64,000 bases of DNA from Candidatus Uhrbacteria bacterium (lineage in GTDB: Bacteria > Patescibacteriota > Patescibacteriia > GWA2-47-26). The translations under genes were made by a program, and so were the position numbers. The notes beneath the pieces are model-generated. The model saw only the letters and a program-made list of their open reading frames with translations, was not told where the DNA came from and searched no databases. Each line of letters starts with the position of its first letter. The first letter of the stretch is position 1. The stretch covers positions 132,891 to 196,890 of the forward strand of contig JACPJN010000009.1 in assembly GCA_016187515.1 (NCBI GenBank), given 5' to 3'. Below, one piece after another: positions 3,524 to 50,978 of this stretch.

Positions 3524-5872
3524 TCACAAGCGCAGCCGACGCAACAGTTGGGCGTTAAAGGCCACGATAACCGTGGAAAGCGACATCAATATTGCGGCAA
3601 AGGCCGGCGCCAGAATAATGCCGAGTGGCAGAAACGCGCCCGCGGCCGCCGGAATCGCAAAGGCGTTATATCCGGTTGCCCAAATTAAATTTTCCACCAT
3701 TTTCCGGTAAGTCGCCCGCGCGAGTTTAATAATCCGCACAATATCGCGCGGGTCGCTTTTGATTAGCACAATGCCCGCGGATTCGATGGCCACATCAGTG
3801 CCCGCGCCTATCGCGATTCCCACATCCGCCGCGGTAAGCGCCGGCGCGTCATTAATGCCGTCCCCGACCATCGCCACCCGCATCCCGCGCTTTTGCAGCT
3901 CCTGAACTTTCTCCACTTTTTGCTCCGGCAACACTTGCGCAAAATATTCATCAATTCCAAGCTCCTTTGCCACCCACTCCGCTACCGGTTTTGCGTCGCC
4001 GGTTATCATTGCCACTTTCACTCCCATATCATGAAGCACGTGCACTGCCGCGCGCGACTCTTCGCGAATAATATCGGCTACTCCGAATGCCGCGACAGTT
4101 TTATCATCAGCAATGAGATATATCACAGTTTTACCTTGTGCCTGTAGTACAGTAATGTCTTTTGACAAAAGTTCCATACTTGGAACTATGGAACTTTTTT
4201 CTGGAGACGCGGAAAGTAAATTTTCTCCTCCCACCCGCACCATTTTACCATTTACAAAACCCTCTACTCCACGTCCTGGCAATGCTTTTACATCCGCCGC
4301 TTTCGGTATTGTCAAGCCGCGCTCTTGCGCGGCCTTAACAATCGCTTTGGCAATCGGATGCTCGGACTCGCGATCCACCGCCGCCGCCAGCGCCAACAAT
4401 TCATTCTGCGCGGACTGTGAACTGTGAACTGATGACTGTGAACTCACTAGTATATCAGTGACACCGTATTCGCCACGGGTTAATGTTCCGGTTTTATCAA
4501 AAAGCACTATGTCAATCTTTCGCGCCAACTCCAGCGCCAGTTTCTCGCGCACCAGCAGCCCACTGCGTGCCGAAAGCGTAGTGGAAATTGAAGCGACGAG
4601 CGGCACGGCCAATCCCAGCGCGTGCGGACAGGCAATGACGAGCACGGCCACCACACGGGTCAGCGCTACCGCGATTCCGGCATCAAGCGCTAACCATGCC
4701 ACGACTGTAACTGCGCCCACCGTAACCGCGATAATTGTCAACACCAGCGCGGCTTTGTCCGCCAGCGCTTGCACGCGGCTGCGCGAGGCCTGGGCCTGGG
4801 CCACGAGCCGCATAATACCCGCGAGCGCGGTTTGCTCGCCGACTTTGGCCACGCGCACTTTAAGCGCGCCTTCGCCATTGATTGTCCCGGCAATCACCGG
4901 ACTGCCCGGTTTTTTGTCAACCGGTTTTGACTCGCCGGTAATCATGGATTCATTCACGCTGGAAACACCCTCAACAATTTCTCCGTCCGCCGGCACCTTG
5001 GTACCCGGCCGCACAAGAACAATATCACCAACACGTAATTCTGAAACCGGTACGATCTCAATACCTTCATTCATAACCCCCCTATCCCCCCTTATCTTAA
5101 GGGGGGTATTTGTTGTGTCTCCCTCCCTTAAGGTAAGGGAGGGCGGGGGTGGGTTATGCATTGCAATCCGCTCCGCCGTATCCGGTAAAAGCTTTGCCAA
5201 CTCCCGCAGCGCGCCCGAAGCATGTCCCACTGCCGCCATTTCAATCCAATGGCCCAAAAGCATGATCGTAATCAGCGTGGCAATTTCCCAAAACAGCGGC
5301 TCGCCAATTGGCCAAAACACCGTGAGCACGCTATACGAATACGCCACCGTTATAGCCAGCGCGATAAGCGTCATCATCCCGGGCAAACGATGCTTCAGTT
5401 CCGCAATCGCGCCCCGGATAAACACCCAACCGCCGTAGAAAAAAATCATACTCGCCAACGCGAGCGTCAAATACATGTGTCCTGGAAATTCCGGAAAGTG
5501 CACGCGGAACAACTTCTGTACCACGTCAGCGTACGCCAAAACCGGCAAGGTCAGCGCCAAACACACCCAAAACCGTTGCTTGAACATATTCACACTATGC
5601 CCCGCATGTCCCGACGCTTCGGTCGGGATCCCGACTTTACGTCGGGACTTGTCCACCAATTTGTCATTTCGAGGGAGCGCGGCAACCGAGAAATCTCTAC
5701 CGCCTTGCATACCACGGTGTAGAGATTCCTCACTACGTTCGGAATGACGAATTGGTTGCGGCCGATGATGGCTACAATAATAATGCATCACCCCTTGCGC
5801 GTCCTTTTCCGCATACTCGGCCACCATCCCGCATAATTCACATTTTTGTCCTTTAGGAATTTCGTGTTTCAT
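3524..5872 (-). CDS. copB: Copper-translocating P1B-type ATPase, CopB-like (CPH motif, His-rich N-terminus)
   Basis: DKTGTLT phosphorylation motif; CPH in the TM6 segment [11 protein letters not shown]; [10 protein letters not shown] hinge; N-terminal CxxC (CELCGM). Carries three in-frame palindromic inserts. Confidence 0.9.
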
Positions 5873-7100
5873 AATCTCTTAAGAGTTTAGCCACTCCCAG
5901 CGCGGTTCCATCGTCTGTGATTTGCCGGCGCACGTTGACTCCCGATACCTTCGCTTGTATGGAAACCATGCGGACATCACGCGTAATACCGCCGTCAATC
6001 ACCAGCGTACGCGGACGAATTGGCAGCTTTTTTAAATATCCATCCACATCTTTGGCAATATACGTGAGCGCCCTATCCAATTTATTGACATCATGTAAGA
6101 CCTTGTCTATTGCGGACCCGCTTCCTTCAATTTTTGCCTCCAGCGCGAATTGTGGACGCCGCGCGCCGGGCATAAGGGTGGTAAAAAACGGCTGCCTCAA
6201 CACATACTTCGACCCTAGTGATTGCACCAAAAACGTTCCTGTGCCATAAGTGACTTTGGTAGTACCTGGACTAACCCCTACTCCATACATACTGGCTTGC
6301 TGATCGCCGCATACCGCACGCACCGGCAAACGTGCGCCAACCACCTCATGGCGCAAAACACCGAATTTTGACTGTGATGGGCGCACTTCCGGCAGTATCG
6401 CGCGCGGCACACCAAATATCTCGAGCAACTCATCATCCCACTTTAAAGTACGGATATTATACAAAAGCGTGCGCGAAGCATTAGTCCAGTCAGTCAAATG
6501 CGGCCGGCCTTCAAGCAGATTCCATAAGATCCAAGTGTCCACGGTGCCGAAAAATAGTTCACCACCCCTAACCCCTCCTCGGCGAGGAGGGGAAACGATT
6601 CGCTTTCCTCCCCTGCCCGAGGGTAGGATTAAGGAGGGGTGGGAGCGATTGCTAACCACATTCCTTAAAATCCACCCCACCTTTGTCGCGGAAAAATACG
6701 GATCAATAGCCAGTCCGGTTTTACCGCGCACCTCGTCGCTAAGAGACGGACGCCGTCTCTTAGCGACGGCACACTCTTTCGCGGTCCTTTTATCTTCCCA
6801 AACAATCGCGGGATAAATCGGTTTTCCGGTTTTGCGATTCCACACGATTGCGGTTTCTCGCTGATTGGTAAGACCGAAGGCGCGCAGTGATTTTAGCGGA
6901 ACTCGGCTTGCCCGCACTGCAGTGCGCAGCACTTGTTTGCTGACTGCCAGGAGCTCGGAGGGCGATTGCTCAACGAATCCCGGCTTTGGATGCGTTTTTC
7001 TAATACGCGCATACGCGCGTCCCACAATTTCAATACTCTGCGAAAAAACCAAGGCCTTAATTCCGGTTGTACCTACGTCAAGCACCAAATAATATCTCAT
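5853..7100 (-). CDS. FGGY-family carbohydrate kinase (glycerol kinase-like) with in-frame GC-rich insert
   Basis: N-terminal YYLVLDVGTTGIKALVF, then TNQRETAIVWN and GTVDTWILWNL, all typical of GlpK/FGGY. The insert encodes SGRGGKRIVSPPRRGGVRGG. Confidence 0.7.
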   Translation of the reverse strand: MRYYLVLDVGTTGIKALVFSQSIEIVGRAYARIRKTHPKPGFVEQSPSELLAVSKQVLRTAVRASRVPLKSLRAFGLTNQRETAIVWNRKTGKPIYPAIVWEDKRTAKECAVAKRRRPSLSDEVRGKTGLAIDPYFSATKVGWILRNVVSNRSHPSLILPSGRGGKRIVSPPRRGGVRGGELFFGTVDTWILWNLLEGRPHLTDWTNASRTLLYNIRTLKWDDELLEIFGVPRAILPEVRPSQSKFGVLRHEVVGARLPVRAVCGDQQASMYGVGVSPGTTKVTYGTGTFLVQSLGSKYVLRQPFFTTLMPGARRPQFALEAKIEGSGSAIDKVLHDVNKLDRALTYIAKDVDGYLKKLPIRPRTLVIDGGITRDVRMVSIQAKVSGVNVRRQITDDGTALGVAKLLRDYETRNS

Positions 7101-8200
7101 AGCGCAGTATCGGCAAAAAATTTCTTAATCTCCTTGCAGGGGTCGGCGCCGCGGTATAACACGCGACACACCAGATTAAGCAGCGGCGCTTTTACTTTTT
7201 TGCGGCGCGCCAAATCGAAAAAAACTTTCGTGGCGGCAACGCCTTCATGAGTTTGACTGCTTTTCTGCCATACAAATTTGCAATGCCCTTCTTTACAAAT
7301 ACGCTCGCCCAAGGCGCGATTGCGGCCATCGCCTAACCCCGTAACCACCAAATCCCCCACCCCGGCCAATCCGTGGACCGTAATCGCTTTACCGCCAAGC
7401 GCCACAACCACCTGTTCCATCTCGGCAACCGCCAGAGTAAACATAAACGCCTTCATATTCATCGGCAAACCAATTTCGTGATATTTCGTGTCCGACCATC
7501 GGTATCCTTTCGTGGTCTTTCGTGTATAACCATCGCACATCCCGAGCGCGATCGCATAAACATTTTTAAGCCCTCCGCATATACCCACCCCTTTCCAGTC
7601 CGCGGAAACCGCCACCTTAAATGTGGAGGAGGTAAAGACATCGCGCACTAATTCACGCGCTTTCTTGTCCTGACTTGCCGCGACTACCGCGGTCGGTACA
7701 CCGCGGACCAATTCCTTGGCAATGGACGGCCCGGAAATAGTAACCACCCTACGACGCAGCGCCGCGGGCAATTCCGATTGCACAACTTCGTGCATGGTAA
7801 GATTAGTCTTGGCTTCCAATCCCTTTACGACATGCGCAATTACCAACCTCCGCCCCTCACCCTCCCCTCTCCCACGGGGAGAGGGTGGCCGTAGGCCGGG
7901 TGAGGGAATTAGGCACTGTGCCAACTTCCGCACCGTCTGGCGCACATACGGCGACGCGCACGCCACGATCACTAGTGCGGCGTTTTCCACCGCCCGTTCC
8001 ATGCTCGCCTCCGGCACAATATTCTTGGATAATTTCACTCCTGGTAAAAATCGTTCATTCTTTCCAGTTCGTGCGATTACCTCGACAGTTCGTGATTCAT
8101 AATCCCAAAGCGCGGCGCGATGTCCGCGCAACGCTAAAATCTGCGCCAGCGCGGTTCCCATATTTCCGGCGCCTAAAACCGTGGTATTTATTTTTGCCAT
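7097..8200 (-). CDS. gpsA: NAD(P)H-dependent glycerol-3-phosphate dehydrogenase with in-frame palindromic insert
   Basis: Rossmann motif TVLGAGNMGTALAQIL and a GpsA-like C-terminal domain. Insert encodes SPGLRPPSPRGRGEGEGRR. Confidence 0.85.
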   Translation of the reverse strand: MAKINTTVLGAGNMGTALAQILALRGHRAALWDYESRTVEVIARTGKNERFLPGVKLSKNIVPEASMERAVENAALVIVACASPYVRQTVRKLAQCLIPSPGLRPPSPRGRGEGEGRRLVIAHVVKGLEAKTNLTMHEVVQSELPAALRRRVVTISGPSIAKELVRGVPTAVVAASQDKKARELVRDVFTSSTFKVAVSADWKGVGICGGLKNVYAIALGMCDGYTRKTTKGYRWSDTKYHEIGLPMNMKAFMFTLAVAEMEQVVVALGGKAITVHGLAGVGDLVVTGLGDGRNRALGERICKEGHCKFVWQKSSQTHEGVAATKVFFDLARRKKVKAPLLNLVCRVLYRGADPCKEIKKFFADTAL

Positions 8201-12951: not shown

Positions 12952-13593
12952 CTATTCAAACACAATCCGAATTACATGATCCTTTGCCTCCGGTGTGTAC
13001 TGACCCACGTATTCCCGGAACTCCATATTTGCCTCACCGTTGACAAACATCTTCACCTGTCCAGGTTTTCCCGGCGTACACTCATCGCCATTTTTCTTAT
13101 CCATAATCCGATCGCGATCAAAGGAAATCCGATGCTTATCAAAGAAACGACCGAGTGTAATATCTTCTTTTTGAAGAATGCGCCCCTCAATGTGCCAGGT
13201 GTTATCGCCATGATGGTGATAAAGAGGAATGCCTACCATCTGCCCGCTTTTTGATCCAGGCAAATCGCGCTTCTCACCACATACGTCAATATCAATCTTG
13301 GCATGCCAATGCACCGGTTTATCCGTATAGGTCGTCGCGGCCGGAGTCGGGCCATTCGACGAGGTTGGCTTTGCGCTATAAATCACGGCGCCCACCACAC
13401 CGATACCCAACACTAAACTAATGACATGCCAGGCGTGAATCCGCCGCACTTTCGGCGCGCGCTCGCGCGCTTGTTCTGTTTTTTTAAGTAAACGTCGCTG
13501 TCGTCGCGTCATTGGTTGTTGATCCATATTTATTAGGCATTGTTGATTACAATTTGACTTCGATAATATCGCCGTCCTTAAATACATAGTCAA
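12952..13593 (-). CDS. Hypothetical membrane-anchored protein with His-rich segment (LYHHHGDNTWH)
   Basis: ORF only. Confidence 0.35.
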   Translation of the reverse strand: MTMYLRTAILSKSNCNQQCLINMDQQPMTRRQRRLLKKTEQARERAPKVRRIHAWHVISLVLGIGVVGAVIYSAKPTSSNGPTPAATTYTDKPVHWHAKIDIDVCGEKRDLPGSKSGQMVGIPLYHHHGDNTWHIEGRILQKEDITLGRFFDKHRISFDRDRIMDKKNGDECTPGKPGQVKMFVNGEANMEFREYVGQYTPEAKDHVIRIVFE

Positions 13594-14596
13594 GGCCTTG
13601 TACTGGTGATGCTCCGCCCACTACCACTTTAATGTGTTTCGGATCGTAAGTCAATCCCATACTGTCAAACCAAAACTTTAGCGGTACGCCAGTGGCATGC
13701 ATGTGCAAACGATTAAAGTTTGGTCCTTCCACATGGAGGAAACTTGAGCTTTTGCCATCATCATTGCCTCCCATACGATGCCCATACGGGGTAAGATCAA
13801 GTTCCTTGCCATTCTGAAGTACATGAAACTCTGCATGAATATGCGCTGACTGCAACAGCCCGATTTTTGCATCCGGATCCATGGTACACTCCATCATACC
13901 ACTTTCAATGCATTGATCAATGGCCATCCCGCACGCATCGCACGCTCCGTCGCCGTTTTTATCCATGAGTTCTTTGGCCTGGGCAATGTCGAAAAGGGTG
14001 AATTTCATCTGGCTCGTAACCCCCCTGTCCCCCCTTACCCTAAGTGGGGAATCGCTTTCGTCTCCTCCCCTTAAGATAAGGGGAGGTTGGGAGGGGTTAT
14101 GAGTCGCGAAAAACAGTCCCACCACCGCCACCACTCCCACCAACCCTCCCGCCACCTTCTTCCCCTGCTCCACAAAATCCACCACCCACCCGGTTTCCAC
14201 GCGTTTCACGATCAAATCTTTCAGATACCATCCAAGCACGCCCAGCACCAGCACTAATCCCACTGTTCGCGCGCCGGCAACCCACTCGCCGGCAAATGGC
14301 AATCCCGCCAGTAAAAGTCCGGCATTTCCAAACACGCCGCGTGTGGTAATGCAGCGCATCCTCATCCCCGCACGAATAAAAAGCAGCACACCAAATAATA
14401 CCACTGCCGCGATCCACAATGGCCACTGAAAACGATTTAAAAACAAAAGCGGCATGCCTTGGAGCGCAATGCCAAAAGTGGCTACGAGCGCGATAAGCGA
14501 AGTGCAGACATTATGACAAATCTGCCATGAACCTAAAATTGAGGCACAACCCGAGATTTTACTTCCGCGAGAGAACCAATTTGTTGAAATCTTCAT
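13547..14596 (-). CDS. Hypothetical membrane protein with in-frame palindromic insert (SPLRVRGDRGVT) and Cys-rich C-terminal domain
   Basis: Start trimmed to MKISTNWF at 14596; the track ORF extends upstream across a palindromic element and the trxB 3' end. Confidence 0.4.
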   Translation of the reverse strand: MKISTNWFSRGSKISGCASILGSWQICHNVCTSLIALVATFGIALQGMPLLFLNRFQWPLWIAAVVLFGVLLFIRAGMRMRCITTRGVFGNAGLLLAGLPFAGEWVAGARTVGLVLVLGVLGWYLKDLIVKRVETGWVVDFVEQGKKVAGGLVGVVAVVGLFFATHNPSQPPLILRGGDESDSPLRVRGDRGVTSQMKFTLFDIAQAKELMDKNGDGACDACGMAIDQCIESGMMECTMDPDAKIGLLQSAHIHAEFHVLQNGKELDLTPYGHRMGGNDDGKSSSFLHVEGPNFNRLHMHATGVPLKFWFDSMGLTYDPKHIKVVVGGASPVQGLDYVFKDGDIIEVKL

Positions 14597-14666
14597 AGCA
14601 ATATAGCGACTTGCGCAAAAAGTTCCATACTTGTGCTCCCAAGGCGCATCAGCCCACGGCTGAGAA

Positions 14667-15692
14667 CTATGGAACTTTTTTCTTATTTCTTGGGGGTATA
14701 GATTTAGGCGCGATAATCGGCAACGCATGCACCTCGCAGGCCATTCCACCGTGAACTCCCAGATCTTGATACGCCGAGGTGGCCGCCATCGCGCCTTGCG
14801 CGGCCGCAATAATATCCTGACGGAATGGCCCGGCGCCGTCGGTAATATCTCCTGCCGCGAATATGCCATCCACATTGGTTTTCATAAATTTATCCACATG
14901 GATATATCCTTTCTCGTCTAATTCCACCCCAAGTTTTTTTGCCATCTCATTGTTTGGCAACGCACCGATCTGCACGAATAAACCGCCTGCCTTGAGAACA
15001 TCCGACTCTTTATACGGCTTAGAAAGCCGCACACCTTCAAATTTGTCCGTGCCTAAAATTTCTTTTATCGCGGTGTTGTACAAAATTTCCGCCTTTCCGG
15101 TCTTTACGAGATTGGTCTCAAACCGATCCCAATTCACCGGCTCTGCGGTAATTTTGCCACCACGCACAATGAAATAAATCTTTGTCACGTATTCACCTGC
15201 CAGATTTGCGCCTTTCACGGAAGAATCGCCGCCGCCAACAATAATAATCTCTTTGCCTTTGTAAAGCGGCGCATCACAAGTCGTACAATACGAAATTCCG
15301 CGGCCGGTCAGTTCTTTTTCCTTGGGTAATCCCAGCCGCCGATGCCGCGCGCCCAGCGCGAAACAAATCGTCCGCGATAAAAGATGCGTGCCGTCCGTAA
15401 GTAGGAGATCAAAACAATGCTTTTGTCGAAGTACATCAATGACTTCTCCATCGCGCAGCTCCACACCGGTGGAGACCGCGTGATCTTCCATCTTTTGAAT
15501 AAGCTCATAGCCATCAATGCTCTTGAACCCCGGATAATTTTCAACTGTGGCCGCAATCGCGGTCTCCCCTCCGGGATCCTTGCCGCGCACCACCACGGTT
15601 TTCATCTTATATCGCTCAGCATAAATCCCGGCCGAAAGTCCGGCCGCCCCGCCGCCGATGATTGCGAAATCATACAATTTATCATCCGCCAT
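14667..15692 (-). CDS. trxB: Thioredoxin-disulfide reductase
   Basis: FAD motif DFAIIGGGAAGLSAG; redox CTTCD; NADPH motif IIIVGGGDS. Confidence 0.9.
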   Translation of the reverse strand: MADDKLYDFAIIGGGAAGLSAGIYAERYKMKTVVVRGKDPGGETAIAATVENYPGFKSIDGYELIQKMEDHAVSTGVELRDGEVIDVLRQKHCFDLLLTDGTHLLSRTICFALGARHRRLGLPKEKELTGRGISYCTTCDAPLYKGKEIIIVGGGDSSVKGANLAGEYVTKIYFIVRGGKITAEPVNWDRFETNLVKTGKAEILYNTAIKEILGTDKFEGVRLSKPYKESDVLKAGGLFVQIGALPNNEMAKKLGVELDEKGYIHVDKFMKTNVDGIFAAGDITDGAGPFRQDIIAAAQGAMAATSAYQDLGVHGGMACEVHALPIIAPKSIPPRNKKKVP

Positions 15693-18768: not shown

Positions 18769-19632
18769 CTACAGCCTTGGTTGCGGAAGAAATTGATTGA
18801 GATTCGCCTGAAAATAACGGTCCACTCCCAGCCACAAGGCGATTGCCCAGATCACGAGAATAATTCCGCCAACTTGTCGAATACGCGCCGAGGCGCGCGC
18901 AAATCCCTTGATGCGCAGCGTAAGCGCCCGGCCGCCGTAGCCGATTAAGAGCATGGGCACAGCCGCGCCAAGGCCGTAGGTGAAAAATAGCAAGCCGCTT
19001 TGGAATACATTCTGTGTATTTGCGGCAAAGGTGAGAATCGCGCCAAGAATCGGACCGGCGCACGGGGTCCACACCACGCCAAGGGTTGACCCAATTCCAA
19101 ACCCGCCCCAGAAGCCGTTGCCCCCTCCCCTCGCCCCTCCCACAGGTGGAGGGGAAATGTGGGATTGTTTTCCTCCCCTGATGGGAGGAAAATTTTCAAT
19201 TGTTTCCTCCCCCCTTGTGGGGGAGGATGAAGGAGGGGGGTTGCAACACGATCCACGCGCACTGATTTTCCTCCACACAAATGTCCCCCTCACCACCATC
19301 CACTCCCACAGCGCCGGCACGGCCAACGCCACCCCGAATAAAAACAAGAGCACAATAGAGGCCACGCGCAGCGTGCCTTTGGAAATTCCCAGTACATCCA
19401 GAAAAATCGCAAACGCCGTGCCAAAAATGGTAAACGTCACCACGAGTCCAGCCACAATTCCAAGCGGCCGCCACTTACTTGTGCCCAAAGAACCGCCCAA
19501 AATCGCCGGAAGCACCGGCAAAAGGCAAGGCGCGGCAACGGTCAGCACCCCGGCGGCAAAAGAAAGAGGGAGAAGAGAAAACACAAAATGACAATTTCTA
19601 ATTGACCTAATTGCTCTAATTATTCTAAACAA
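18769..19632 (-). CDS. CcdA/DsbD-family transmembrane thiol-disulfide transporter carrying a ~46-aa in-frame GC-rich insert
   Basis: AAPCLLPVLP and VWTPCAGPILG match CcdA Cys motifs. Insert encodes CCNPPPSSSPTRGEE...GGARGGGNGFWGG. Confidence 0.65.
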   Translation of the reverse strand: MFRIIRAIRSIRNCHFVFSLLPLSFAAGVLTVAAPCLLPVLPAILGGSLGTSKWRPLGIVAGLVVTFTIFGTAFAIFLDVLGISKGTLRVASIVLLFLFGVALAVPALWEWMVVRGTFVWRKISARGSCCNPPPSSSPTRGEETIENFPPIRGGKQSHISPPPVGGARGGGNGFWGGFGIGSTLGVVWTPCAGPILGAILTFAANTQNVFQSGLLFFTYGLGAAVPMLLIGYGGRALTLRIKGFARASARIRQVGGIILVIWAIALWLGVDRYFQANLNQFLPQPRL

Positions 19633-20332: not shown

Positions 20333-21106
20333 TTAATGGCTAACCGCCACTCCATGCATCCCATCCGCCCCGGCGCCGCCATGAGTTTGGTGACCCAGCG
20401 CATCCACCCGACCAGTGGCCAAAAGATAATCCTCAATCACTCCTTTGGGATACCAAACTCCCTTCCACCTCTGCAATTCGCCTAAAATCTCTTCATCGGT
20501 GTATTGGCCTCCATATCCCTGTAAAATATGCTTGGCAATACTGCGATACGCTTTGGCATGACGGCAGCCGCAGTTATTAATGGCCGTAACCCGCGTAGGC
20601 CCGCCGCAACAGTAATCGCAAGTCATGGTGCTAACAATTTTTTCCCACCGCGTCTGAAGATCGCCGTTTAACTGAATCTGATCTTCAAACGGCTGCCAAG
20701 CGGCCAGCGCGCCAACCGGATCATCAAAACTGATCCCGGGCGGCGCGTAAAACGGCGTTCCGGTCGCGATCATCACTATTTTGGCCGCCTCCACCGCGTC
20801 CAGCCCCTTTGGTTCTGCCGGAACTTCGGTAATCGTGGGCTGTTTAACCACTGCAGTCGTTCGCCCATCCGGATTGATTTTTGTCGCGATAATTTCCCGC
20901 GCCGAAGCGCCTTGAGTGGTAAACAATGCTTTAATACTCTTCAGTGTATTTGAGGATCCCTGGGCCTTCGGCACCATCGCGCCAATCATAAATTGGTTGA
21001 CCGCCACAAGAATTGTAACTAGCCAAATGCCTAGTTTATAAGAAAGCTCATGACTCAACTGTTCTCCAATTTGCAATTTCATATATAGGTAATTTCCAAA
21101 TTCCAA
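20333..21106 (-). CDS. Hypothetical protein with Cys cluster (CDYCCGG...CGCRHAKA)
   Basis: ORF; real start may be the internal MKLQIGE. Confidence 0.35.
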   Translation of the reverse strand: MEFGNYLYMKLQIGEQLSHELSYKLGIWLVTILVAVNQFMIGAMVPKAQGSSNTLKSIKALFTTQGASAREIIATKINPDGRTTAVVKQPTITEVPAEPKGLDAVEAAKIVMIATGTPFYAPPGISFDDPVGALAAWQPFEDQIQLNGDLQTRWEKIVSTMTCDYCCGGPTRVTAINNCGCRHAKAYRSIAKHILQGYGGQYTDEEILGELQRWKGVWYPKGVIEDYLLATGRVDALGHQTHGGAGADGMHGVAVSH

Positions 21107-21230
21107 GCACCAAATTACAAGGAAATCCTAATCTCCAAATCACAAATTACAATTATTTGTAATTTGGAATTTGTGGTTTGGTATTTGTTTGTTTTTTGGG
21201 ATTTGTGATTTGTGATTTCTCAATTAGCAC
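21101..21230. repeat. AT-rich inverted/tandem repeats (caaattaca / tgtaatttg, tttgtgatttgtgattt)
   Basis: Direct read. Confidence 0.7.
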
Positions 21231-23761: not shown

Positions 23762-24580
23762 TCAAGTGATGTCGTGCTGATGCTCTCCCCAAGAGCAAAA
23801 TCCGCACTGACTATGATGCGCCGGCGACTGATCGCTCTGCAGTAGTCGAGCGGCGTTTTCGAATAATTGCCGAGCGCGCTTTATACTGGTTTCCATCCGT
23901 TTGGGCGTTATTTCAAACTGCACGACTCCATTCTCGCGCACTTCAATCGGGTGATAATACACTAACCATCCCACTCCTTTGGTTTTATAACCATTCTCGT
24001 GCAAAAGCCACTCGTAAATATCTAACTGGTGCTGATAAAATCCGGAAGAATCCTCTTTTGGCGCGTACCCGCGGGTTTTGTAATCAAGCGGTACGTAATA
24101 GCGTGCCAAATTCCTTTTACTGCTCCCCTCTCCCCCGTGTGGGAGAGGGCTAGGGTGAGGGGATTCAGTAACCACCAAACAATCATCCAAAAGTCCGATG
24201 AGTTTCGTGTTGAGTTTTTTATCAAAATAGCGCAGACCACCAGTGCGCGCGCGCCAGCCATTCAGTAATTTCTGGTCAGCGAGCAGCTTCCCCTCCACTT
24301 TTCCGCGGATTTCCGGCGGTAACCCTTCCTTTGTTCCGCGAAACTTATCAAAGTAAGTTTTTATAACACCATCCATTCCTCCCGGAAGTGAAGGGAAAAT
24401 GGTTTTTGGACGATGCACGCCCATTTTAAGCTGTAACCAAAAACACCGCGGACATTCTTTAAAAAGCGAGAGCGTGGAGGCGGAAAGCTGGATAAATCGT
24501 CCAACCTCACGGTCATTGCGAGGAGCTTTCATTGCTCCGCCAAGCGGTAACCTTCCATTCGTTCCCATAGGGTTATTCAT
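23762..24580 (-). CDS. PD-(D/E)XK nuclease superfamily protein with Cys cluster (Cas4/RecB-like fold), carries in-frame palindromic insert
   Basis: N-terminal CPRCFW; LLDDCLVV...VPLDYK fits D...ExK; C-terminal CGFCSW. Insert encodes SPHPSPLPHGGEGSS. Confidence 0.5.
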   Translation of the reverse strand: MNNPMGTNGRLPLGGAMKAPRNDREVGRFIQLSASTLSLFKECPRCFWLQLKMGVHRPKTIFPSLPGGMDGVIKTYFDKFRGTKEGLPPEIRGKVEGKLLADQKLLNGWRARTGGLRYFDKKLNTKLIGLLDDCLVVTESPHPSPLPHGGEGSSKRNLARYYVPLDYKTRGYAPKEDSSGFYQHQLDIYEWLLHENGYKTKGVGWLVYYHPIEVRENGVVQFEITPKRMETSIKRARQLFENAARLLQSDQSPAHHSQCGFCSWGEHQHDIT

Positions 24581-24900: not shown

Positions 24901-26103
24901 CTATTGCGTAGGTATATACTGCCATGGATTAAGCCACTGGTCAAGTTCTGTTTTTGATTTCACATATCCACGAAGATCCAGACGCGTACCTTTATGAATT
25001 CCGAAGTGCAGGTGTTTGCGCTCGCCATCGGTCTCGCTCGTGCCACCCGCACCCAACACACCAATTATGTCACCGGGCGCAACATATTCACCTACGCCCT
25101 CTTTCTCCCCCTCCTGGAAAGGGCTCTCCCCTTTTTTCTCCCCCTCTCCCCTTGTGGGAGAGGGCGGGGGTGAGGGGTCAATTTTCAAATGCCCATACAC
25201 CACCGTAACCGCTTGATCACCGAGCACGCACTCCTGCACTACTACTCCCCCATAGCCATCCGCAGTGCGTTTTTCACGGATCGTCCCACCACAGAACGCG
25301 CGCACCTCCACGTCCCGATCCTTTTCTTCATCCGACACTTCAAAATCCACCGCAGTATGGTAACCGGAAAAACGTTCGGGCTGCACCGGAGAATTTTCTG
25401 GAGCAACTTTCAGTCCAAACGGCTTTTTGGTAACGCGCGCGGCGGCACGATCGATCGGCGCACTGAAACTCACGCGATCATTGTGGAATTGAATGCTTTG
25501 GAAAAATTTTTCAAACTCCTCTTTGGGGAGATCTGGATTGCGTCCGAACACGTAAAATACGCCCGGACTGTTCTTTGCGAAGCGCACATCCGTAACCTCA
25601 TGAGTTTCATTTCGCCAGGACGGCTGATATGGAAAATCCGCTACCCCTTTTTTCTTACGAATCGTGTAGCGCACGGCAGCGTGTCCCTGCGCTTCCAACT
25701 GTGCGCGCTCCAAAATATCCACGGTACGCAGGGTAAGAAAATCGCTCGCCTCAAAATAACGGATAAAAATCTGGGAAAGCTCCCGCGCGGGCATTGCCGC
25801 CTGCACCGGTCCATAGATATTCAGCGCTTCAATCTCCGGCACATATTCCGCCTGCCATGTACTCGGAAGCTCGGCGGAAAATCGAAACACCGGATTAAAC
25901 TCCGAAAAATCTACTCGAATTAAAGCAGACGATTGTTCTCGTGTCGCTTCTTCACTCTCCGGCAATTGTCCCAAATTCTCACGGCCGTGAGAATTTGGGA
26001 CAATTAGAACTGGGGTTGTAGTGGTTTTCCCTTGCTCTTGTGGCTGCCCCGCACAGCCAGACCCGAGCAAAATAATGACTATAAAAAGTAAAATAAATCT
26101 CAT
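24901..26103 (-). CDS. M23-family metallopeptidase lipoprotein with in-frame GC-rich insert
   Basis: Lipobox GSGCAG; M23 HxH (HLHFGIH). Insert encodes SPPPSPTRGEGEKKGESPFQEGEKEGVGE. Confidence 0.8.
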   Translation of the reverse strand: MRFILLFIVIILLGSGCAGQPQEQGKTTTTPVLIVPNSHGRENLGQLPESEEATREQSSALIRVDFSEFNPVFRFSAELPSTWQAEYVPEIEALNIYGPVQAAMPARELSQIFIRYFEASDFLTLRTVDILERAQLEAQGHAAVRYTIRKKKGVADFPYQPSWRNETHEVTDVRFAKNSPGVFYVFGRNPDLPKEEFEKFFQSIQFHNDRVSFSAPIDRAAARVTKKPFGLKVAPENSPVQPERFSGYHTAVDFEVSDEEKDRDVEVRAFCGGTIREKRTADGYGGVVVQECVLGDQAVTVVYGHLKIDPSPPPSPTRGEGEKKGESPFQEGEKEGVGEYVAPGDIIGVLGAGGTSETDGERKHLHFGIHKGTRLDLRGYVKSKTELDQWLNPWQYIPTQ

Positions 26104-26777
26104 AAAAATTTCTTTAGTTGTTTTTTATTAATCGCGCCCTCCCGCAGTATCTTGGGAGGACTCACCGTAAGATCCAGTACCGTGGAAGGCACTCGGACTG
26201 AAGTGGAACCGGCATCCAACACCAGGTCTACGCGCCTAAGCAAAGCCCGTGAAATATCGGAAACGCGCGTGGGTGGCTTCTCGCCGGAAAAATTTGCCGA
26301 GGGCGCGGCCAGCGGACCGGCCGCGCGAATGAGCGCCAGCGCCACCTTGTGCGCCGGCATCCGCACCGCCACTGTTTTCACCCTCCCCTTCGGTTGAATA
26401 AAAAGTTCCATACTTGGAACTATGGAACTATTTAATTTACCCAATACTAAATCCGGAAGAGCTTTTTGCGCATGAAACACAAGAGTCAAAGGTCCTGACC
26501 AAAATTTACGCACAAGCGCACGCGCCACGCTTGGCACATCACGCGCGAGTATATCAATCGTGGATTTTTTTGATATATGCACAATCAGCGGCTTTTTTTC
26601 CGGCCGCCCTTTTATTTTAAAAATCTTCCGCACCGCGCGGGCATTAAACGCATCCGCCCCCAGCCCATACACCGTCTCGGTCGGAAAAACCACCAACCCG
26701 CCGCGGCGAATAATTTCCGCCGCATGCGCAATCACCTTCGAATCCGGCCTTTGCGCCGATATTTTTACAATCTTCAT
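26100..26777 (-). CDS. tsaC: L-threonylcarbamoyladenylate synthase (YrdC/TsaC domain) with short in-frame palindromic insert
   Basis: VVFPTETVYGLGADAFNARAVRKIFKIKGRPEKKPLIVHI. Insert encodes [11 protein letters not shown]. Confidence 0.8.
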   Translation of the reverse strand: MKIVKISAQRPDSKVIAHAAEIIRRGGLVVFPTETVYGLGADAFNARAVRKIFKIKGRPEKKPLIVHISKKSTIDILARDVPSVARALVRKFWSGPLTLVFHAQKALPDLVLGKLNSSIVPSMELFIQPKGRVKTVAVRMPAHKVALALIRAAGPLAAPSANFSGEKPPTRVSDISRALLRRVDLVLDAGSTSVRVPSTVLDLTVSPPKILREGAINKKQLKKFL

Positions 26778-28459: not shown

Positions 28460-28469
28460 ATCTGTAAAA

Positions 28470-28539
28470 TTCCGGGGCTTGGATTCGAACCAAGATAGCC
28501 AGGACCAAAACCTGGAGTCCTACCATTAGACGACCCCGG
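28470..28539 (-). tRNA. tRNA-Gln(TTG), CCA not encoded
   Basis: Reverse complement TCCGGGGTCGTCTAATGGTAGGACTCCAGGTTTTGGTCCTGG...GGTTCGAATCCAAGCCCCGGAA. Anticodon loop TTTTGGT. Confidence 0.8.
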
Positions 28540-28610
28540 AATTTTATAGACAACAAATAGACATTTGCCTTGCTGATAATATCATAGTTTATCGGATTTG
28601 TATATGCCAC

Positions 28611-28745
28611 GAGCGACAACCACTCCTTCTCCCACCCCCTCTAACTCCCCCTCGGGCAGGGGGAGAAACCTCCTTGAAAAGGAGGGGGGACTTTTTAATT
28701 TCCCCTCCTCTTTGAGGAGGGGTTAGGGGTGGTGAGAGAGTTCTT
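28611..28745. repeat. GC-rich mosaic palindromic element (ccaccccctctaactccccctcgggcagggggagaaacctcc; cccctcctctttgaggagggg)
   Basis: Direct read; a related copy sits at 29228-29290. Confidence 0.75.
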
Positions 28746-29094
28746 TGATAATCCCGGCGATTACCTCGCCAACATTCTCACATACATCATTGTCGGTAAA
28801 TCGAAGCACGCGAATTCCTTGGGCTTCAATGAACTTCTGCCGTTGTGCATCCCGCCGCTTCGCTCCCTCCTGATAATGACTATCCCCATCCAGCTCGACG
28901 ACCAATTTTACCCTGGGACAATAAAAATCGACCACATGAGGGCCGATTCCTTGCTGCCGACGAAATTTATACCCTTCCACATTACTCCCTCGCAGATAGT
29001 ACCAGAGAATTTTCTCACTCCGTGTCATTCGACTACGAAGTTTTTGACGCGTGGATTTTTGTGCGTTCGGGTTAAACAATTTTACCATAACCAC
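28723..29094 (-). CDS. DUF559 (Vsr-like) endonuclease-domain protein
   Basis: GYKFRRQQGIGPHVVDFYCPRVKLVVELDGDSH...RDAQRQKFIEAQGIRVLRF matches the DUF559 pattern. Confidence 0.75.
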   Translation of the reverse strand: MVMVKLFNPNAQKSTRQKLRSRMTRSEKILWYYLRGSNVEGYKFRRQQGIGPHVVDFYCPRVKLVVELDGDSHYQEGAKRRDAQRQKFIEAQGIRVLRFTDNDVCENVGEVIAGIIKELSHHP

Positions 29095-29330
29095 CCCTTA
29101 ATCCCCTCCTTGGAAAGGAGGGGAAATCTTAACCACCCCTTAATCCCCTCCTTGGAAAGGAGGGGAAATCTTAACCACCCCTTAATCCCCTCCTTGGAAA
29201 GGAGGGGAAATCTTAACCGCCCCTTCTCCCACCCCCTCTAACTCCCCCTCGCCTGCCCGCCTCTGGAGGGGGCAGGGGGAGAAACCTCCTTGCCTGTCCG
29301 CCTCTGGCGGGGAAAGGAGGGGAAATCAAA
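29095..29330. repeat. Three tandem copies of a 42-bp hairpin unit (cttaaccaccccttaatcccctccttggaaaggaggggaaat), then a GC-rich palindromic segment
   Basis: Direct read. Confidence 0.85.
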
Positions 29331-33188: not shown

Positions 33189-33290
33189 AGCACTCGGTGT
33201 ACGAATTACGAATGACGTTGCGAATATTACAAATTTGAACTCAACAACTTATTCGTAGTATTCGTTCAAGATTCGTAATTCGTACACAAT
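33181..33290. repeat. AT-rich repeats (cgaattacgaatg, attcgtaattcgtac)
   Basis: Direct read; upstream of the 32859..33188 start. Confidence 0.7.
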
Positions 33291-37828: not shown

Positions 37829-38569
37829 TCAAACTACTAACGATAACCTCGCCCGCTCGTCGCGTATGAGCGTCAAGACCTCTCGTTTCAGAACTTTTCG
37901 GACTAGCTGAAACTTCGCTGCGGGAAGGAGATAATTTAGGTCCTCCGAAAGTATCCGGTCGGTAATCTCTTGATCCACAAAGACATACAATTTCGCAAAA
38001 AAATCTTTTACCTTCATTCCGCTCCCCTCCCGGATCACCTCGGCGGAATAGTGGTACCCGCGCATAAAGAAAAAATGGACATCATACACGTCTCTTCCGG
38101 CAATGTTTCCGTGCGCCTCCGATCTTCCGATGAGCGCAAGAAGTTTATGCGCAAACATCGTCTCGATCGTCTGACACGTCAAAATACGATCAATCTCGGG
38201 CAGACGTTGCGGAGCGTAAGTATTCGCAGAAAGCAATGGAAATGCTGTGTCAATCTTTATAGCATTTCTTCCCTCCTCAATATACCGAAGAAAATATTGG
38301 ATGCCTTTTTTACTTGAATCCTTCACGGAAAGTCCAAGCGCCGTAAAGATGCGCTCAAGCGCGGTACGCGTTGCGACAATTTGTTTTTTGTCACCCGCAA
38401 AGTCAAAGTCAAGGTCAACGGAAAACCGATCAAGCCACCCGAGCATTGAGGCGCAAGTCCCTCCTTTAAAATAAAGCACATCTGGCAAAAACGGATCGTC
38501 CGCAATTTGCTCCAATACTCTATAAAGCCACGCTTTGTGCAGGGCGTCGTTTTTATTTGGTATGGTCAT
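37829..38569 (-). CDS. AbiEii/AbiGii-family nucleotidyltransferase toxin (type IV TA)
   Basis: YFKGGTCASMLGWLDRFSVDLDFDF matches the AbiEii signature. Confidence 0.7.
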   Translation of the reverse strand: MTIPNKNDALHKAWLYRVLEQIADDPFLPDVLYFKGGTCASMLGWLDRFSVDLDFDFAGDKKQIVATRTALERIFTALGLSVKDSSKKGIQYFLRYIEEGRNAIKIDTAFPLLSANTYAPQRLPEIDRILTCQTIETMFAHKLLALIGRSEAHGNIAGRDVYDVHFFFMRGYHYSAEVIREGSGMKVKDFFAKLYVFVDQEITDRILSEDLNYLLPAAKFQLVRKVLKREVLTLIRDERARLSLVV

Positions 38570-39176
38570 AACCTTTCATAATAGAGGACGGGTATCCAAT
38601 CGCGCGAACAATATCCCGCACGGCATCCCAATCAACTGCGGAAGGAACATCAAAGTGTTTTTTGGGATTAAAATAAAGCGTATCGGCAACCGCGCGCGGC
38701 AGATCGGCCATGCGAATTCCATCCCGAGTGTGCACTCCCGCGTCATTAAAAAGGAATTCGTCTGCCAACTTTCGTGAGCGATAGTCGTAACCGGCCAGAG
38801 CGAATCGCCGTGACACGCCGCTCACTATTGAAACAGAACGCGGCGGCTGACTAATAACCCCGGCCTCGAAAAGGACCGTCTCGCACGAAATATACGCCGA
38901 GCCATGCAATGCTTTTAGACCGATTAGATACGGATGAAGATCGGCCGGTTTTTTTATGGAATACAAACCCTTCTGAATCCTAAACAGCAGTCCCTGCGCT
39001 ACATACCGGGAAAGAGTCATATGCAGGGTGGAGGCCTTGCGGATATCCCATAGATTGGCAAGATCATTAACATGAAATACCTGCTCGCGAAGCGCCGCCA
39101 AACGCGAAAAACGCTCGCCGGACGACTCTCGGGAGCGAATAATGCGTTTATCGGCTTTTAGCATATTGCTGTTCAT
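38553..39176 (-). CDS. AbiEi-like antitoxin/transcriptional regulator
   Basis: Position and size relative to AbiEii; start trimmed to MNSNMLKADKRII. Confidence 0.5.
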   Translation of the reverse strand: MNSNMLKADKRIIRSRESSGERFSRLAALREQVFHVNDLANLWDIRKASTLHMTLSRYVAQGLLFRIQKGLYSIKKPADLHPYLIGLKALHGSAYISCETVLFEAGVISQPPRSVSIVSGVSRRFALAGYDYRSRKLADEFLFNDAGVHTRDGIRMADLPRAVADTLYFNPKKHFDVPSAVDWDAVRDIVRAIGYPSSIMKGYDHTK

Positions 39177-39352
39177 TAACCTATACTTATATGTATAGTA
39201 TAAATGAACTAAAAAATTTGTCAAAAGCCGTGGGCAAGGATTGGAAAATGCAACTAACCTCATCTTTCCGCTAGCTGCTTTTTATACAAAAAAACGCCCC
39301 CGGGACAAATCCCAAAGGGCTGAACAAGGAACAGCAGCGGAGAAGAATGGCA

Positions 39353-49373: not shown

Positions 49374-50978
49374 TTATTGAGTTATTACCGGCAGTTCCTC
49401 CGCGGCCACCTCCTCTGCCGTCGTCTCTTCAAGCTGCTCCGCCGCTTCGGTCTGCGCCGCGGATTCTGGCGCGGGCGCTGGCTCCACTACTGGCGCGGGT
49501 TCCACCGGTACCGGCGTTTCCACTGCTGGCCCGGCTTCCTCCCCCTCTCCCTCGGCGGGAGAGGGCGGGGGTGAGGGGGCGCTGACACTATCCCCCTCTC
49601 CCCCGGCGGGAGAGGGTTGGGGTGAGGGGGCACTTGCCTCGCTTGATTTACTTGCTTCACTTGATTCACTGCTGCCACGCGGGGTCCCGCACGCGCCGGG
49701 CCGCACCACTACTCCGCCATTGCGCAGCGACACGCATGAAGGCGAACCGGTTACCTCATCATGCAGTGTAATCCCGGTCGGCCGCTCCGGACTTCCCACC
49801 GTCAAATCCCGCACTTGCAGCTGGCCATCTTGCGAAATACTCCAAACCCCGGAAATTCCGGCAATGCGTCCGACCTCAAGGATCGCGTAGCCATTCATGT
49901 TCAGATTATGCTCCGCCACCGTTATCAAACCGTCGGATCCTTGACTGGCGGTCAACTCATCCGGGCCATGCCAGTAGAAATTATTGACCAACATCATAAT
50001 CTGGCCATTTCCGCTCTCCCAATTTTCAAGCGCGATACCGATAACCTTCCCTGAACGCGCGGTCTTCATCGCATGACCCGCCAATGACGAGCTTACCAAA
50101 TAATCACCAACGCCAATCGCGCCGTTTTCATCGGTAACTTTGACCGGCACGCGCCCGGAAAGAGCGACGGGCAAAGGATGACGGCCCTGTTTTTGTATAT
50201 CACCGCCAATGGTCTGGACCGGTGATCCGGAAATCACGCCGAATATCTTCGCGCTATATGATTCTTGGGACTTCCCGAGTATGGCAATGGTCTCTCGTCC
50301 ATTTTCCTCGGCAATAAGACCGGTAAACGGATCAACTCTCGTGGCCTCATACGTAAAATAGGCATCGGTCAGCGCCACCACGTCCCCCACCTCTACATTT
50401 TGTTCGGTTTCATACCATTCCGCAAGGTCGCCGGCGCCATTATTGCAAGCCACGAGCGCTTCGGTCGTATCGGAAGCCGCGTCAAGATCAGATCCGGAAT
50501 GACATACCCCATTGGTGGTCGCGGTTGAATTAAAATTCACCGACGTTATTCCGGCCGGTGTTACGGTAAACTTGCTGTTATTCACGTTAATCGCGTTATC
50601 CCAACCGCTGCTGATAAACAGACCGGATGAACTCACCGTACCGGTTCCGGCTTCCGTCATACTGCCAACACTAATACCGGTGGCGATGAGATTATTGGTG
50701 GTGGAAGTGGCCGTGATATTGGCGATATTTAGAACAGTATTCGTGCTGTTGTTGGTGGTGGAGGCAAAAGTGGCATTGAGGTTTAAGAGGTTAGAACCAG
50801 TAGCGCCTTCCGCCGTAATCAGGGTAATGTTGAGCGCGTCCACATTGGCAGTGGCGGTGGTGTCGCCCGAGCCGATCGTGACCAGATCAGCTGTCGGGGT
50901 CGCATCGCCATCCAGATTAATGGTTTGTCCGTCAATAATGGCCTCACGCCTCCCGAGGCCAAAAACAGATCGCCCCAC
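49374..50978 (-). CDS. C-terminal part of a giant repetitive Thr/Ser/Gly-rich surface protein (frame-disrupted); contains two in-frame GC-rich hairpin inserts
   Basis: Repeats LNITLITAEGATGSNLLNLNATFASTT; inserts encode SAPSPQPSPAGGEGDS and SAPSPPPSPAEGEGEE. Confidence 0.45.
   Translation of the reverse strand: MGRSVFGLGRREAIIDGQTINLDGDATPTADLVTIGSGDTTATANVDALNITLITAEGATGSNLLNLNATFASTTNNSTNTVLNIANITATSTTNNLIATGISVGSMTEAGTGTVSSSGLFISSGWDNAINVNNSKFTVTPAGITSVNFNSTATTNGVCHSGSDLDAASDTTEALVACNNGAGDLAEWYETEQNVEVGDVVALTDAYFTYEATRVDPFTGLIAEENGRETIAILGKSQESYSAKIFGVISGSPVQTIGGDIQKQGRHPLPVALSGRVPVKVTDENGAIGVGDYLVSSSLAGHAMKTARSGKVIGIALENWESGNGQIMMLVNNFYWHGPDELTASQGSDGLITVAEHNLNMNGYAILEVGRIAGISGVWSISQDGQLQVRDLTVGSPERPTGITLHDEVTGSPSCVSLRNGGVVVRPGACGTPRGSSESSEASKSSEASAPSPQPSPAGGEGDSVSAPSPPPSPAEGEGEEAGPAVETPVPVEPAPVVEPAPAPESAAQTEAAEQLEETTAEEVAAEELPVITQ

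Follow-up and report, generated by a model that had tools for sequence, protein, structure and literature searches.

A nested palindrome in gpsA and related repeats in the window

The DNA analyzed here, a 64-kb stretch of a Candidatus Uhrbacteria contig (hereafter the window), has a GC content of ~52%, a negative GC skew throughout, and all of its sizeable genes on the minus strand. Its gpsA gene (positions 7097 to 8200, minus strand), an intact open reading frame (ORF) of 367 amino acids (aa) matched by both GpsA Pfam domains, harbors one of a set of GC-rich palindromic repeats that lie in frame within genes and around a predicted DUF559 endonuclease gene. This nested palindromic triplex-motif (TM) element spans positions 7854 to 7906 (aa 99 to 116), where the plus strand reads CCCTCACCC TCC CCTCTCCC ACG GGGAGAGGG T GGCCGTAGGCC GGGTGAGGG. 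It consists of a block Y3 (CCCTCACCC), a hairpin (CCCTCTCCC-ACG-GGGAGAGGG), a small GGCC hairpin, and a block R3 (GGGTGAGGG), and it folds into a 9-bp outer stem (CCCTCACCC/GGGTGAGGG) around the two inner hairpins. In folding computations limited to Watson-Crick pairing, it reached −23.2 kcal/mol as DNA (z = −3.96) and −48.1 kcal/mol as the mRNA strand (z = −4.55), with none of 200 shuffles as stable in either case. The original prediction, which was made from the letters of the window and had posited a nested hairpin inserted in frame in gpsA, is borne out on each of these points: the string that it quoted is found exactly at 7854 to 7906, the ORF is open, and the fold outdoes all shuffles, including when folded as RNA as it had suggested. 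The protein around the insert reads ...CLIPSPGLRPPSPRGRGEGEGRRLVIAH..., with the insert itself read as PSPGLRPPSPRGRGEGEG.

A hairpin detector, which required an arm of 7 nt or more made up solely of C and T, a loop of 3 to 8 nt, and a perfectly complementary G/A arm, recovered 18 hairpins and 16 triplex motifs in the window, as opposed to none of either in 30 dinucleotide-preserving shuffles; CCCTCTCCC, allowing up to one mismatch, occurs 33 times (13.1 ± 3.7 expected). A third block stands before or after 16 of the 18 hairpins, nearly always across exactly 3 nt. It mirrors the purine arm with zero mismatches, such that G stays G and A becomes T or A (e.g., GGGAGAGGG followed by GGGTGAGGG, AGGAGGGG by GGGGTGGTG, and TAAGGGAGGG by GGGTGGGTT). 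In asymmetric stems, this block is unable to form Watson-Crick pairs with the pyrimidine arm, which gives the unit the symmetry of a purine-motif intrastrand triplex. In strict copies, the same layout doubles as a run of four G3 tracts. As read from its letters, the unit layout is that of a purine-motif intrastrand triplex motif, which may also be construed as a G-quadruplex/hairpin motif. Both the third block, which defines the class, and the DUF559 gene embedded in the repeats had been overlooked in the original prediction.

The hairpins, previously treated as a single family, are indeed related but fall into three stem subfamilies. Subfamily i (CCCTCTCCC with GGGAGAGGG) comprises only five copies, namely, those in gpsA, a PD-(D/E)XK nuclease gene, an M23 peptidase gene, and two in a 534-aa ORF (ORF534). 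Subfamily ii (CCCCTCCT and CCTCCCC) includes those in the FGGY kinase gene, the ccdA-like gene, and the intergenic copies. Subfamily iii is an 85-bp inverted pair with the termini ATAACCCC...GGGGTTAT, seen in a P-type ATPase gene and in the ORF at 13547 to 14875 (ORF442). Units occur singly or as inverted pairs of ~85 bp; in the longer elements, which are built as inverted pairs or triples, the third blocks lie on the outside. Twelve of the 18 hairpins reside inside eight open ORFs, and the other six are all found in the two spacers flanking the DUF559 gene. The claim that all copies are far more GC-rich than their hosts applies to most of them (0.64 to 0.76 versus 0.49 to 0.56) but not to the CcdA copy (0.58 versus 0.55). 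Similarly, the proposed PSPxxGEG reading fits the strict copies but not the others, with the PD-(D/E)XK copy being in a different phase (SPLPHGGEGS). A search of the window against Rfam found no family for the repeats and matched only five tRNAs.

All of the sites in the five further host genes that had been proposed are real, in frame, and within open ORFs. Pfam confirms the identity of FGGY/GlpK, DsbD_TM/CcdA, PD-(D/E)XK, and M23, whereas the supposed giant surface protein is in fact ORF534, which has no Pfam family and carries its copies in a low-complexity C-terminal stretch. The PD-(D/E)XK/Cas4-like gene contains a single plus-strand unit (24123 to 24163; aa 140 to 153, SPHPSPLPHGGEGS) of the form CCCTCTCCC N6 GGGAGAGGG N3 GGGTGAGGG, which follows the published TMECO pattern (see below). 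The M23 peptidase gene has a TM element (25098 to 25178, plus strand; aa 309 to 336) with an intact TMECO-type right half and a decayed left half, and ORF534 (49374 to 50978) has two tandem TMECO-type units 51 nt apart (49540 to 49630, plus strand) that encode PSPQPSPAGGEGD and PSPPPSPAEGEGE. In the FGGY/GlpK gene, an inverted TM pair (6562 to 6652; aa 150 to 180) combines a CCCCTCCT/AGGAGGGG stem and a third block, GGGGTGGTG, with a degenerate partner; its stem and third block are identical to those flanking DUF559. The DsbD_TM/CcdA gene contains three hairpins (19118 to 19243; aa 130 to 172), the outer two with third blocks on their outer sides; Pfam recovers only the part of this protein after the insert, and both Cys motifs are present in the translation. 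Absent from the first list were the 85-bp subfamily iii pair of the P-type ATPase gene (5073 to 5157), a second such pair in the same frame in ORF442 (14016 to 14100), and the intergenic copies at 28620 to 28722 and 29095 to 29325.

Copies within genes are insertions in otherwise conserved proteins

Comparisons with homologs place the copies as additions to the host proteins. Residues ~99 to 118 of GpsA lie opposite an alignment gap in the solved Coxiella GpsA (PDB code 3k96). At this site, 16 of 25 close homologs have a short native loop without an insert, and the remaining 9, which are the closest ones, hold different palindrome-encoded peptides. In the comparison of gpsA DNA, L126 has no element, L127 has a subfamily iii pair at the site, and L125 has the window's element with one extra hairpin unit (39 nt, with direct repeats at its bounds), a one-unit difference of the sort that slippage would produce. 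An AlphaFold2 model of GpsA (mean predicted local distance difference test score [pLDDT], 89) renders the insert as a coil between a helix (83 to 97) and a strand (120 to 123), with pLDDT values of 56 to 62 that fall below 50 at 110 to 115; in this model, the insert peptide shows as a predicted disordered surface loop.

A second insert in GpsA (7472 to 7528; aa 225 to 243, YTRKTTKGYRWSDTKYHEI) has CACGAAA-like repeats and a low pLDDT and is shared only with the homolog P0003; an inverted pair of similar ACGAAT repeats is present at 33197 to 33287.

In alignments with PDB sequences, GlpK residues 154 to 175 sit between the adjacent residues 153 and 154 of Escherichia coli GlpK, and P-type ATPase residues 238 to 271 sit between CopA residues 231 and 237. 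None of 25 PD-(D/E)XK homologs has the window's insert, and ~20 of them have no insert of any kind at that loop, which holds other inserts in P0149, P0151, P0157, and P0158. A PDB search with the M23 domain gave a match too weak for placing the insert, which was placed instead by comparison with an orthologue (L212:7817-8962, 58% identical) that shows one clean 22-aa gap opposite DPSPPPSPTRGEGEKKGESPFQ. Two related species (L209 and L212) retain the gene order ftsE-ftsX-...-VTT-Sua5-...-PD-(D/E)XK, and their syntenic regions of 20.9 kb and 20.8 kb have no such hairpins, as opposed to eight in the matching 15 kb of the window. The repeat family has undergone an expansion specific to this Candidatus Uhrbacteria lineage, in line with the proliferation that had been proposed.

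The predicted proteins and their alignments show the copies to be insertions in otherwise conserved proteins, with the frame kept and in loops. The alternative that they are conserved low-complexity linkers, pseudogenes, or assembly artifacts draws on the low complexity of the peptides and the position of the ORF534 copies in an already disordered region, but we consider it very improbable: relatives have either no copy or a different one at the orthologous sites; all eight host ORFs are open with their domains intact; and identical proteins come from independent assemblies. Against an assembly artifact, seven contigs drawn from several sequencing runs code for the same GpsA, and a protein in an NCBI metagenome-assembled genome (MAG) named from Candidatus Uhrbacteria matches the PD-(D/E)XK protein at 100% identity. 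Accordingly, the test by orthologue alignment that had been suggested came out in favor of insertion for GpsA, GlpK, M23, and PD-(D/E)XK, in which the extra residues are absent or different in relatives. Loop placement agrees with the low-pLDDT coil in GpsA and with the GlpK and CopA alignments, which break exactly there. Neither of the contrary outcomes envisaged, segments common to distant orthologues or a broken frame, was found.

Assignment of the repeats to the BoxC/PIT/TMECO class

The possibility that the element is undescribed did not hold up, as the strict copies fit a published pattern (PMC4666352, PMC5100583). Holder et al. (2015; PMC4666352) defined TMECO as 5'-CCCTCNCCC N3-6 GGGNGAGGG N3 GGGNGAGGG and took it to be the same element as the BoxC repeat, known from the 1990s, and Hoyne and Maher's PIT element. 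They counted 3610 copies over 262 proteobacterial genomes; in E. coli K-12, all 23 copies are intergenic, the loci are unusually variable, and remnants of transposases or integrases were never found near TMECO sites. Kaplan et al. (2016; PMC5100583) described the same sequences as a G-quadruplex-hairpin-duplex switch (HPG1/HPG2) that occurs strictly between genes. The exact TMECO pattern is found in four copies of the window (24126 to 24161, 25142 to 25176, 49543 to 49577, and 49594 to 49628), and the gpsA copy deviates from it, with a second loop of 2 nt on one side and a loop of 12 nt on the other. The shared features further include the mirror third block (T or A opposite A), TTA/CNG second loops, inverted pairs and arrays, local sequence instability, and a wide taxonomic spread. 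A scan with the exact 27-base composite over one genome per species recovered at least 120 loci; the matches listed came from Pseudomonadota, Planctomycetota, Chloroflexota, Verrucomicrobiota, Actinomycetota, Bacteroidota, Cyanobacteriota, Omnitrophota, Elusimicrobiota, Acidobacteriota, and others, and were mostly intergenic arrays, as in Pseudomonas and Enterobacteriaceae.

The repeats in the window differ from the published ones in several respects. Twelve of their 18 hairpins are in frame inside genes, in contrast to the wholly intergenic E. coli copies; two of the three stem subfamilies fall outside the literal TMECO string; the published surveys covered 262 proteobacterial genomes and cyanobacteria rather than Patescibacteria; and they reported no associated gene, in contrast to the DUF559 gene seen here. 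Literature searches, which were incomplete in coverage, found no publication on in-frame copies in Patescibacteria or on a link between DUF559/ycjD and these repeats. The core motif is already described, and the findings of note are the in-frame copies inside genes of Candidatus Uhrbacteria (and relatives) and the strong, testable association with DUF559.

The published work has proposed roles for these sequences in genome plasticity and regulation (PMC4666352, PMC5100583), and the repeats could be structural DNA or RNA selected by the host, i.e., a triplex, G-quadruplex, or hairpin switch modulating replication, transcription, recombination, or translation pausing, with DUF559 as a repair or processing enzyme retained alongside such structures. 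The retention of the mirror rule across different stems, suggesting selection on the structure or its recognition, and the persistence of the motif in genomes with GC contents of 0.29 to 0.68 speak for this explanation. On the other hand, close relatives with the same gene order have no copies, near relatives differ in whether a given loop has an insert and in which one it has, the host genes are functionally unrelated, and the published tests detected neither a promoter or terminator effect nor a triplex in vivo (PMC4666352). We therefore regard host selection of the structure as quite unlikely.

A DUF559 gene embedded in the repeats

The only gene of the window that is flanked by TM repeats lies at 28723 to 29094 (minus strand) and codes for a 123-aa protein, predicted to be an endonuclease of the DUF559 family (PF04480; Vsr-like PD-(D/E)XK) from its match to the Pfam model (E = 1.9e-33, 106 of 109 positions), PDB code 3hrl (E = 6e-19), and the NCBIfam YcjD model (1.8e-21). 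The motifs ELDG..H and DF.C are invariant in the DUF559 alignment A2. Just 3' of its stop codon is an intergenic TM cluster (28620 to 28722), the last third block of which encodes the C-terminal HHP and the stop. On its 5' side, a TM array (29095 to 29325) extends up to the ftsX stop codon, with three tandem units at a 42-nt period and a repeat of the composite at 28620. In L209 and L212, the syntenic space between ftsX and the next gene (VTT/AKR) is 126 nt and 280 nt and holds only a tRNA, indicating that the block at 28620 to 29325 is present or absent as a unit. PADLOC returned only domain-level matches for the window's DUF559 protein, with no defense system assignment.

An ARAGORN call of tRNA-Gly(TCC) at 29111 to 29193 was rejected, as it overlaps the three tandem 42-nt hairpin units and has no support from the Rfam tRNA model. 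The tRNA-Gln beside the DUF559 block (28469 to 28541), with ~40 nt of flank, is inverted relative to that of L209 (7284 to 7356), and L212 has an extra fragment resembling a tRNA 3' end (5270 to 5420) downstream of its tRNA.

Triplex motifs are associated with DUF559 genes in diverse bacteria

The association extends far beyond the window. Among 80 metagenomic DUF559 loci chosen by protein pattern only, all of them best matches to one subfamily and some near-duplicates, 75 have a hairpin within 200 nt of the DUF559 ORF and 61 have the full triplex motif. Hairpin density in these loci drops from 8.7/kb in the first 100 nt to 0.07/kb at 1.6 to 3.2 kb, and no hairpins lie inside the DUF559 ORFs themselves. 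With crude gene calls as the basis for delimiting spacers, hairpins are found in 51 of 61 DUF559-adjacent spacers versus 5 of 57 other spacers of the same contigs (odds ratio, 53; p = 2e-17). In the cases that could be oriented, the third block faces the DUF559 gene in 42 of the 47 nearest upstream units and 43 of the 48 nearest downstream units. Stem sharing between pairs of loci rises from 9% at 30 to 40% DUF559 identity to 69% above 70%, and the GC content of the host flanks ranges from 0.29 to 0.68. Triplex motifs are thus associated, in a set orientation, with DUF559 genes.

Cultured isolates show the same picture. In ten of them, from five phyla, strict hairpins lie within 200 nt of DUF559 in eight, with canonical TMECO units in Sinorhizobium and Klebsiella; the remaining two have shorter or degenerate hairpins, as judged by eye (10 of 10 if these are counted). 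In E. coli K-12, the DUF559 gene ycjD ends in a degenerate hairpin, and a canonical TMECO follows 170 nt downstream, before fabI; by our own reading of the coordinates, it is apparently the one that Kaplan et al. give as 'fabI/yjcD' in their Table 1. In other phylogroups, the site of ycjD is occupied by the eefRABCD operon (PMC12817139), which fits a locus prone to replacement. Among loci selected by the motif, an Acinetobacter DUF559 gene has the motif on its flanks in DNA of 36% GC. DUF559 also occurs inside other genes: a Gastranaerophilales PriA gene, likewise from the motif-selected loci, includes an in-frame DUF559 domain bounded by DPSPQPSPARGEGV and IPSPLAGEGRVRGS, and cassettes with TM ends are in frame in two more larger ORFs, one restriction-modification (RM)-like and one HsdS-like (L169 and L193). 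The clade of Vsr and DUF559 includes a homing endonuclease, I-Bth0305I (PMC3424549).

Two local arrangements at such loci were also observed. In E. coli K-12 (L128, 1351300 to 1351420), a repeat of the final ~25 nt of ycjD (GGAGACGGTGCTGGAGAATATTC...) follows directly after its stop; lying between the degenerate hairpin and the canonical TMECO, it looks like a partial duplication of the 3' end. In Photobacterium sp. GJ3 (L223, 1883 to 3312), an array of >1.4 kb lies 3' of DUF559, with two alternating triplex-motif types at a ~148-nt period.

An alternative possibility is that the repeats are miniature inverted-repeat transposable element (MITE)-like units moved in trans by an ordinary transposase, e.g., a TA-targeting one, with DUF559 as a passenger or preferred landing site. 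Subfamily iii, like MITEs, has a small size and terminal inverted repeats, which recur in three independent inserts with a possible, if ambiguous, TA at both ends; moreover, units form tandem arrays, and the majority of motif copies have no DUF559 gene in their vicinity. However, no transposase, integrase, or RAYT/Y1 (HUH) Pfam domain was detected in any sizeable ORF of the window, no parent insertion sequence was found, and Holder et al. also encountered no transposase or integrase remnants around TMECO sites (PMC4666352). For a random passenger, neither the orientation rule nor the codivergence of stem and DUF559 would be expected. An ordinary transposase acting in trans accordingly seems to us an unlikely source of the repeats, though less so than host selection.

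In-frame copies occur across unrelated protein families

The ATPase and ORF442 copies encode nearly identical peptides (HNPSQPPLILRGGDESDSPLRVRGDRGV in ORF442), both by use of the element's single stop-free sense frame, and the GpsA homologs P0005 and P0007 hold the same kind of peptide. A profile of the subfamily iii peptide built from four sequences matched 27 representative proteins (HMMER scan of 1.84 billion representative proteins; E ≤ 1e-3). In the longer of these, the peptide is internal to GT4 glycosyltransferases (one with three copies), MurB, the ATP synthase gamma subunit (AtpG), a class V aminotransferase, an O-antigen ligase (Wzy_C), PrmC, and KsgA. A protein search by word index, with the insert peptides joined end to end as the query, was uninformative (two matches only). 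Arms made of C/T only or G/A only cannot hold stop codons, such that stops arise solely in the loops and third blocks; this leaves one or two open frames per orientation and explains how copies survive in coding DNA. P, S, G, E, and R are abundant in the resulting peptides.

A candidate nuclease-repeat system and its likeness to others

Taking these lines of evidence together, we conclude that the repeats are probably elements of the BoxC/PIT/TMECO class, which behave like Rickettsia palindromic elements (RPEs) in coding regions and have DUF559 as a candidate cognate partner. The broader proposal, that DUF559 (YcjD-type) proteins are the missing cognate enzymes of the BoxC/PIT/triplex-motif repeats in a pan-bacterial nuclease-repeat system comparable to RAYT-REP, is more tentative, and we put its chances slightly below even. 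Under it, the triplex-forming inverted repeats would serve as the recognition ends of the DUF559 system, and essential proteins could accommodate both the cassettes and their short derivatives as translated in-frame segments, Patescibacteria being the clearest case. As part of the main conclusion, in turn, we propose that the DUF559 cassette is the cognate, possibly autonomous, partner, recognizing the motif and promoting either its spread or its turnover. Insertions probably land widely rather than being targeted to loops, with selection keeping those that have a net length in a multiple of three, an open frame, and a tolerant loop; units might then be gained or lost locally by slippage or recombination between repeats. 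Both the promotion of repeat spread or turnover by DUF559 and the filtering by selection are steps that we infer.

Several points weigh against a DUF559-driven spread of translated repeats. DUF559 was found near only 2 to 3 of 120 motif-selected loci (tblastn and a small hidden Markov model), which fits either nonautonomous copies or the lack of a functional link; with the motif near almost every DUF559 gene but no DUF559 near most repeats, the association is one-directional. There is only one DUF559 gene in the 64 kb, and the 80 metagenomic loci are best matches to one subfamily, some of them near-duplicates. No transposition or homing event was seen, nor a clear target site duplication. The short pairs have their third blocks outermost, opposite to the arrangement on the DUF559 flanks, and no mechanism explains this; given that the third-block orientation is inverted in the majority arrangement, we do not regard the pairs inside genes as simply cassettes that have lost DUF559. 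The translation of the inserts is predicted from their open frames, and earlier E. coli work found the repeats to have no promoter, terminator, or polymerase-blocking activity and to form no triplex in vivo (as reviewed in PMC4666352).

The resemblance to RPEs (summarized in PMC10969869) that had been proposed stands as far as behavior is concerned, as the copies are in frame, in loops, and multiplied, but not as a sign of an undescribed element, since the class is known. Like RPEs, they are in-frame palindromic repeats in many unrelated housekeeping genes, encode a conserved peptide, are tolerated by virtue of their surface position, and have no known transposase. They differ from RPEs in lineage, sequence, composition, size (~40 to 125 bp here versus ~100 to 150 bp), triplex mirror architecture, and the presence of a flanked nuclease gene, and they are treated here as analogs rather than members of the RPE families. 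Of the systems compared, RPEs offer the nearest analogy for behavior in coding regions, and REP/RAYT the nearest working analogy overall. With the REP/REPIN-RAYT systems, they share short dispersed palindromic repeats, one or few copies of a nuclease gene with inverted repeat flanks, and covariation of repeat sequence with the enzyme. Unlike in those systems, the enzyme is a Vsr-like PD-(D/E)XK protein (DUF559, PF04480) rather than an HUH/Y1 (IS200/IS605-like) transposase, and the repeat is built of three blocks, whereas a REP is a simple hairpin headed by GTAG and lies outside genes. The very-short-patch repair nuclease Vsr and I-Bth0305I share the PD-(D/E)XK fold and clade with DUF559 (PMC3424549), and the latter is a selfish homing nuclease that resides inside genes, where the in-frame DUF559 cassettes of PriA, L169, and L193 also sit. 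However, no intron or intein context is seen here, and no target site or mismatch specificity is known for DUF559.

Other palindromes and features of the window

Some host genes contain palindromes of other kinds. The AT-rich palindrome AGTTCCATACTTGGAACTATGGAACT is in frame in the P-type ATPase gene (4167 to 4198; aa 555 to 572) and in the Sua5/TsaC gene (26404 to 26429; aa 112 to 130), encoding SSIVPSMEL in both, with half-sites (GTTCCATA) at 9576, 14622/14668, and 16949; it looks like another family of in-frame palindromic elements. A perfect palindrome with 19-bp arms, AATTGTCCCAAATTCTCACGGCCGTGAGAATTTGGGACAATT, is found in the M23 ORF (25964 to 26005; aa 33 to 47), and a perfect hairpin with a 16-bp stem, CGTCGCTAAGAGACGG-ACG-CCGTCTCTTAGCGACG, in the FGGY/GlpK ORF (6734 to 6768; aa 111 to 123), a region with only a 2-aa gap against E. 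coli GlpK. The spacer after the ORF at 20333 to 21106 has a long imperfect palindrome or tandem region that is AT-rich (CAAATTCCAAGCACCAAATTACAA..., 21091 to 21227). Elsewhere in the window, at 37829 to 39263, an AbiEii-type toxin gene (PF08843) overlaps an upstream ORF that is probably the antitoxin.

Significance

Knowledge of the BoxC/PIT/TMECO repeats in E. coli dates from the 1990s; they have been linked to genome instability, with no function or mobilizing activity found. Their oriented, near-universal association with DUF559 genes, including ycjD, makes the origin and movement of such repeats testable in a model organism. The in-frame copies add to the RPE phenomenon a second example that is independent and of much wider extent, in Patescibacteria, whose streamlined genomes have little intergenic space. 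As such, they bear on lineage-specific protein insertions, on gene calling, and on homology searches in metagenomes.

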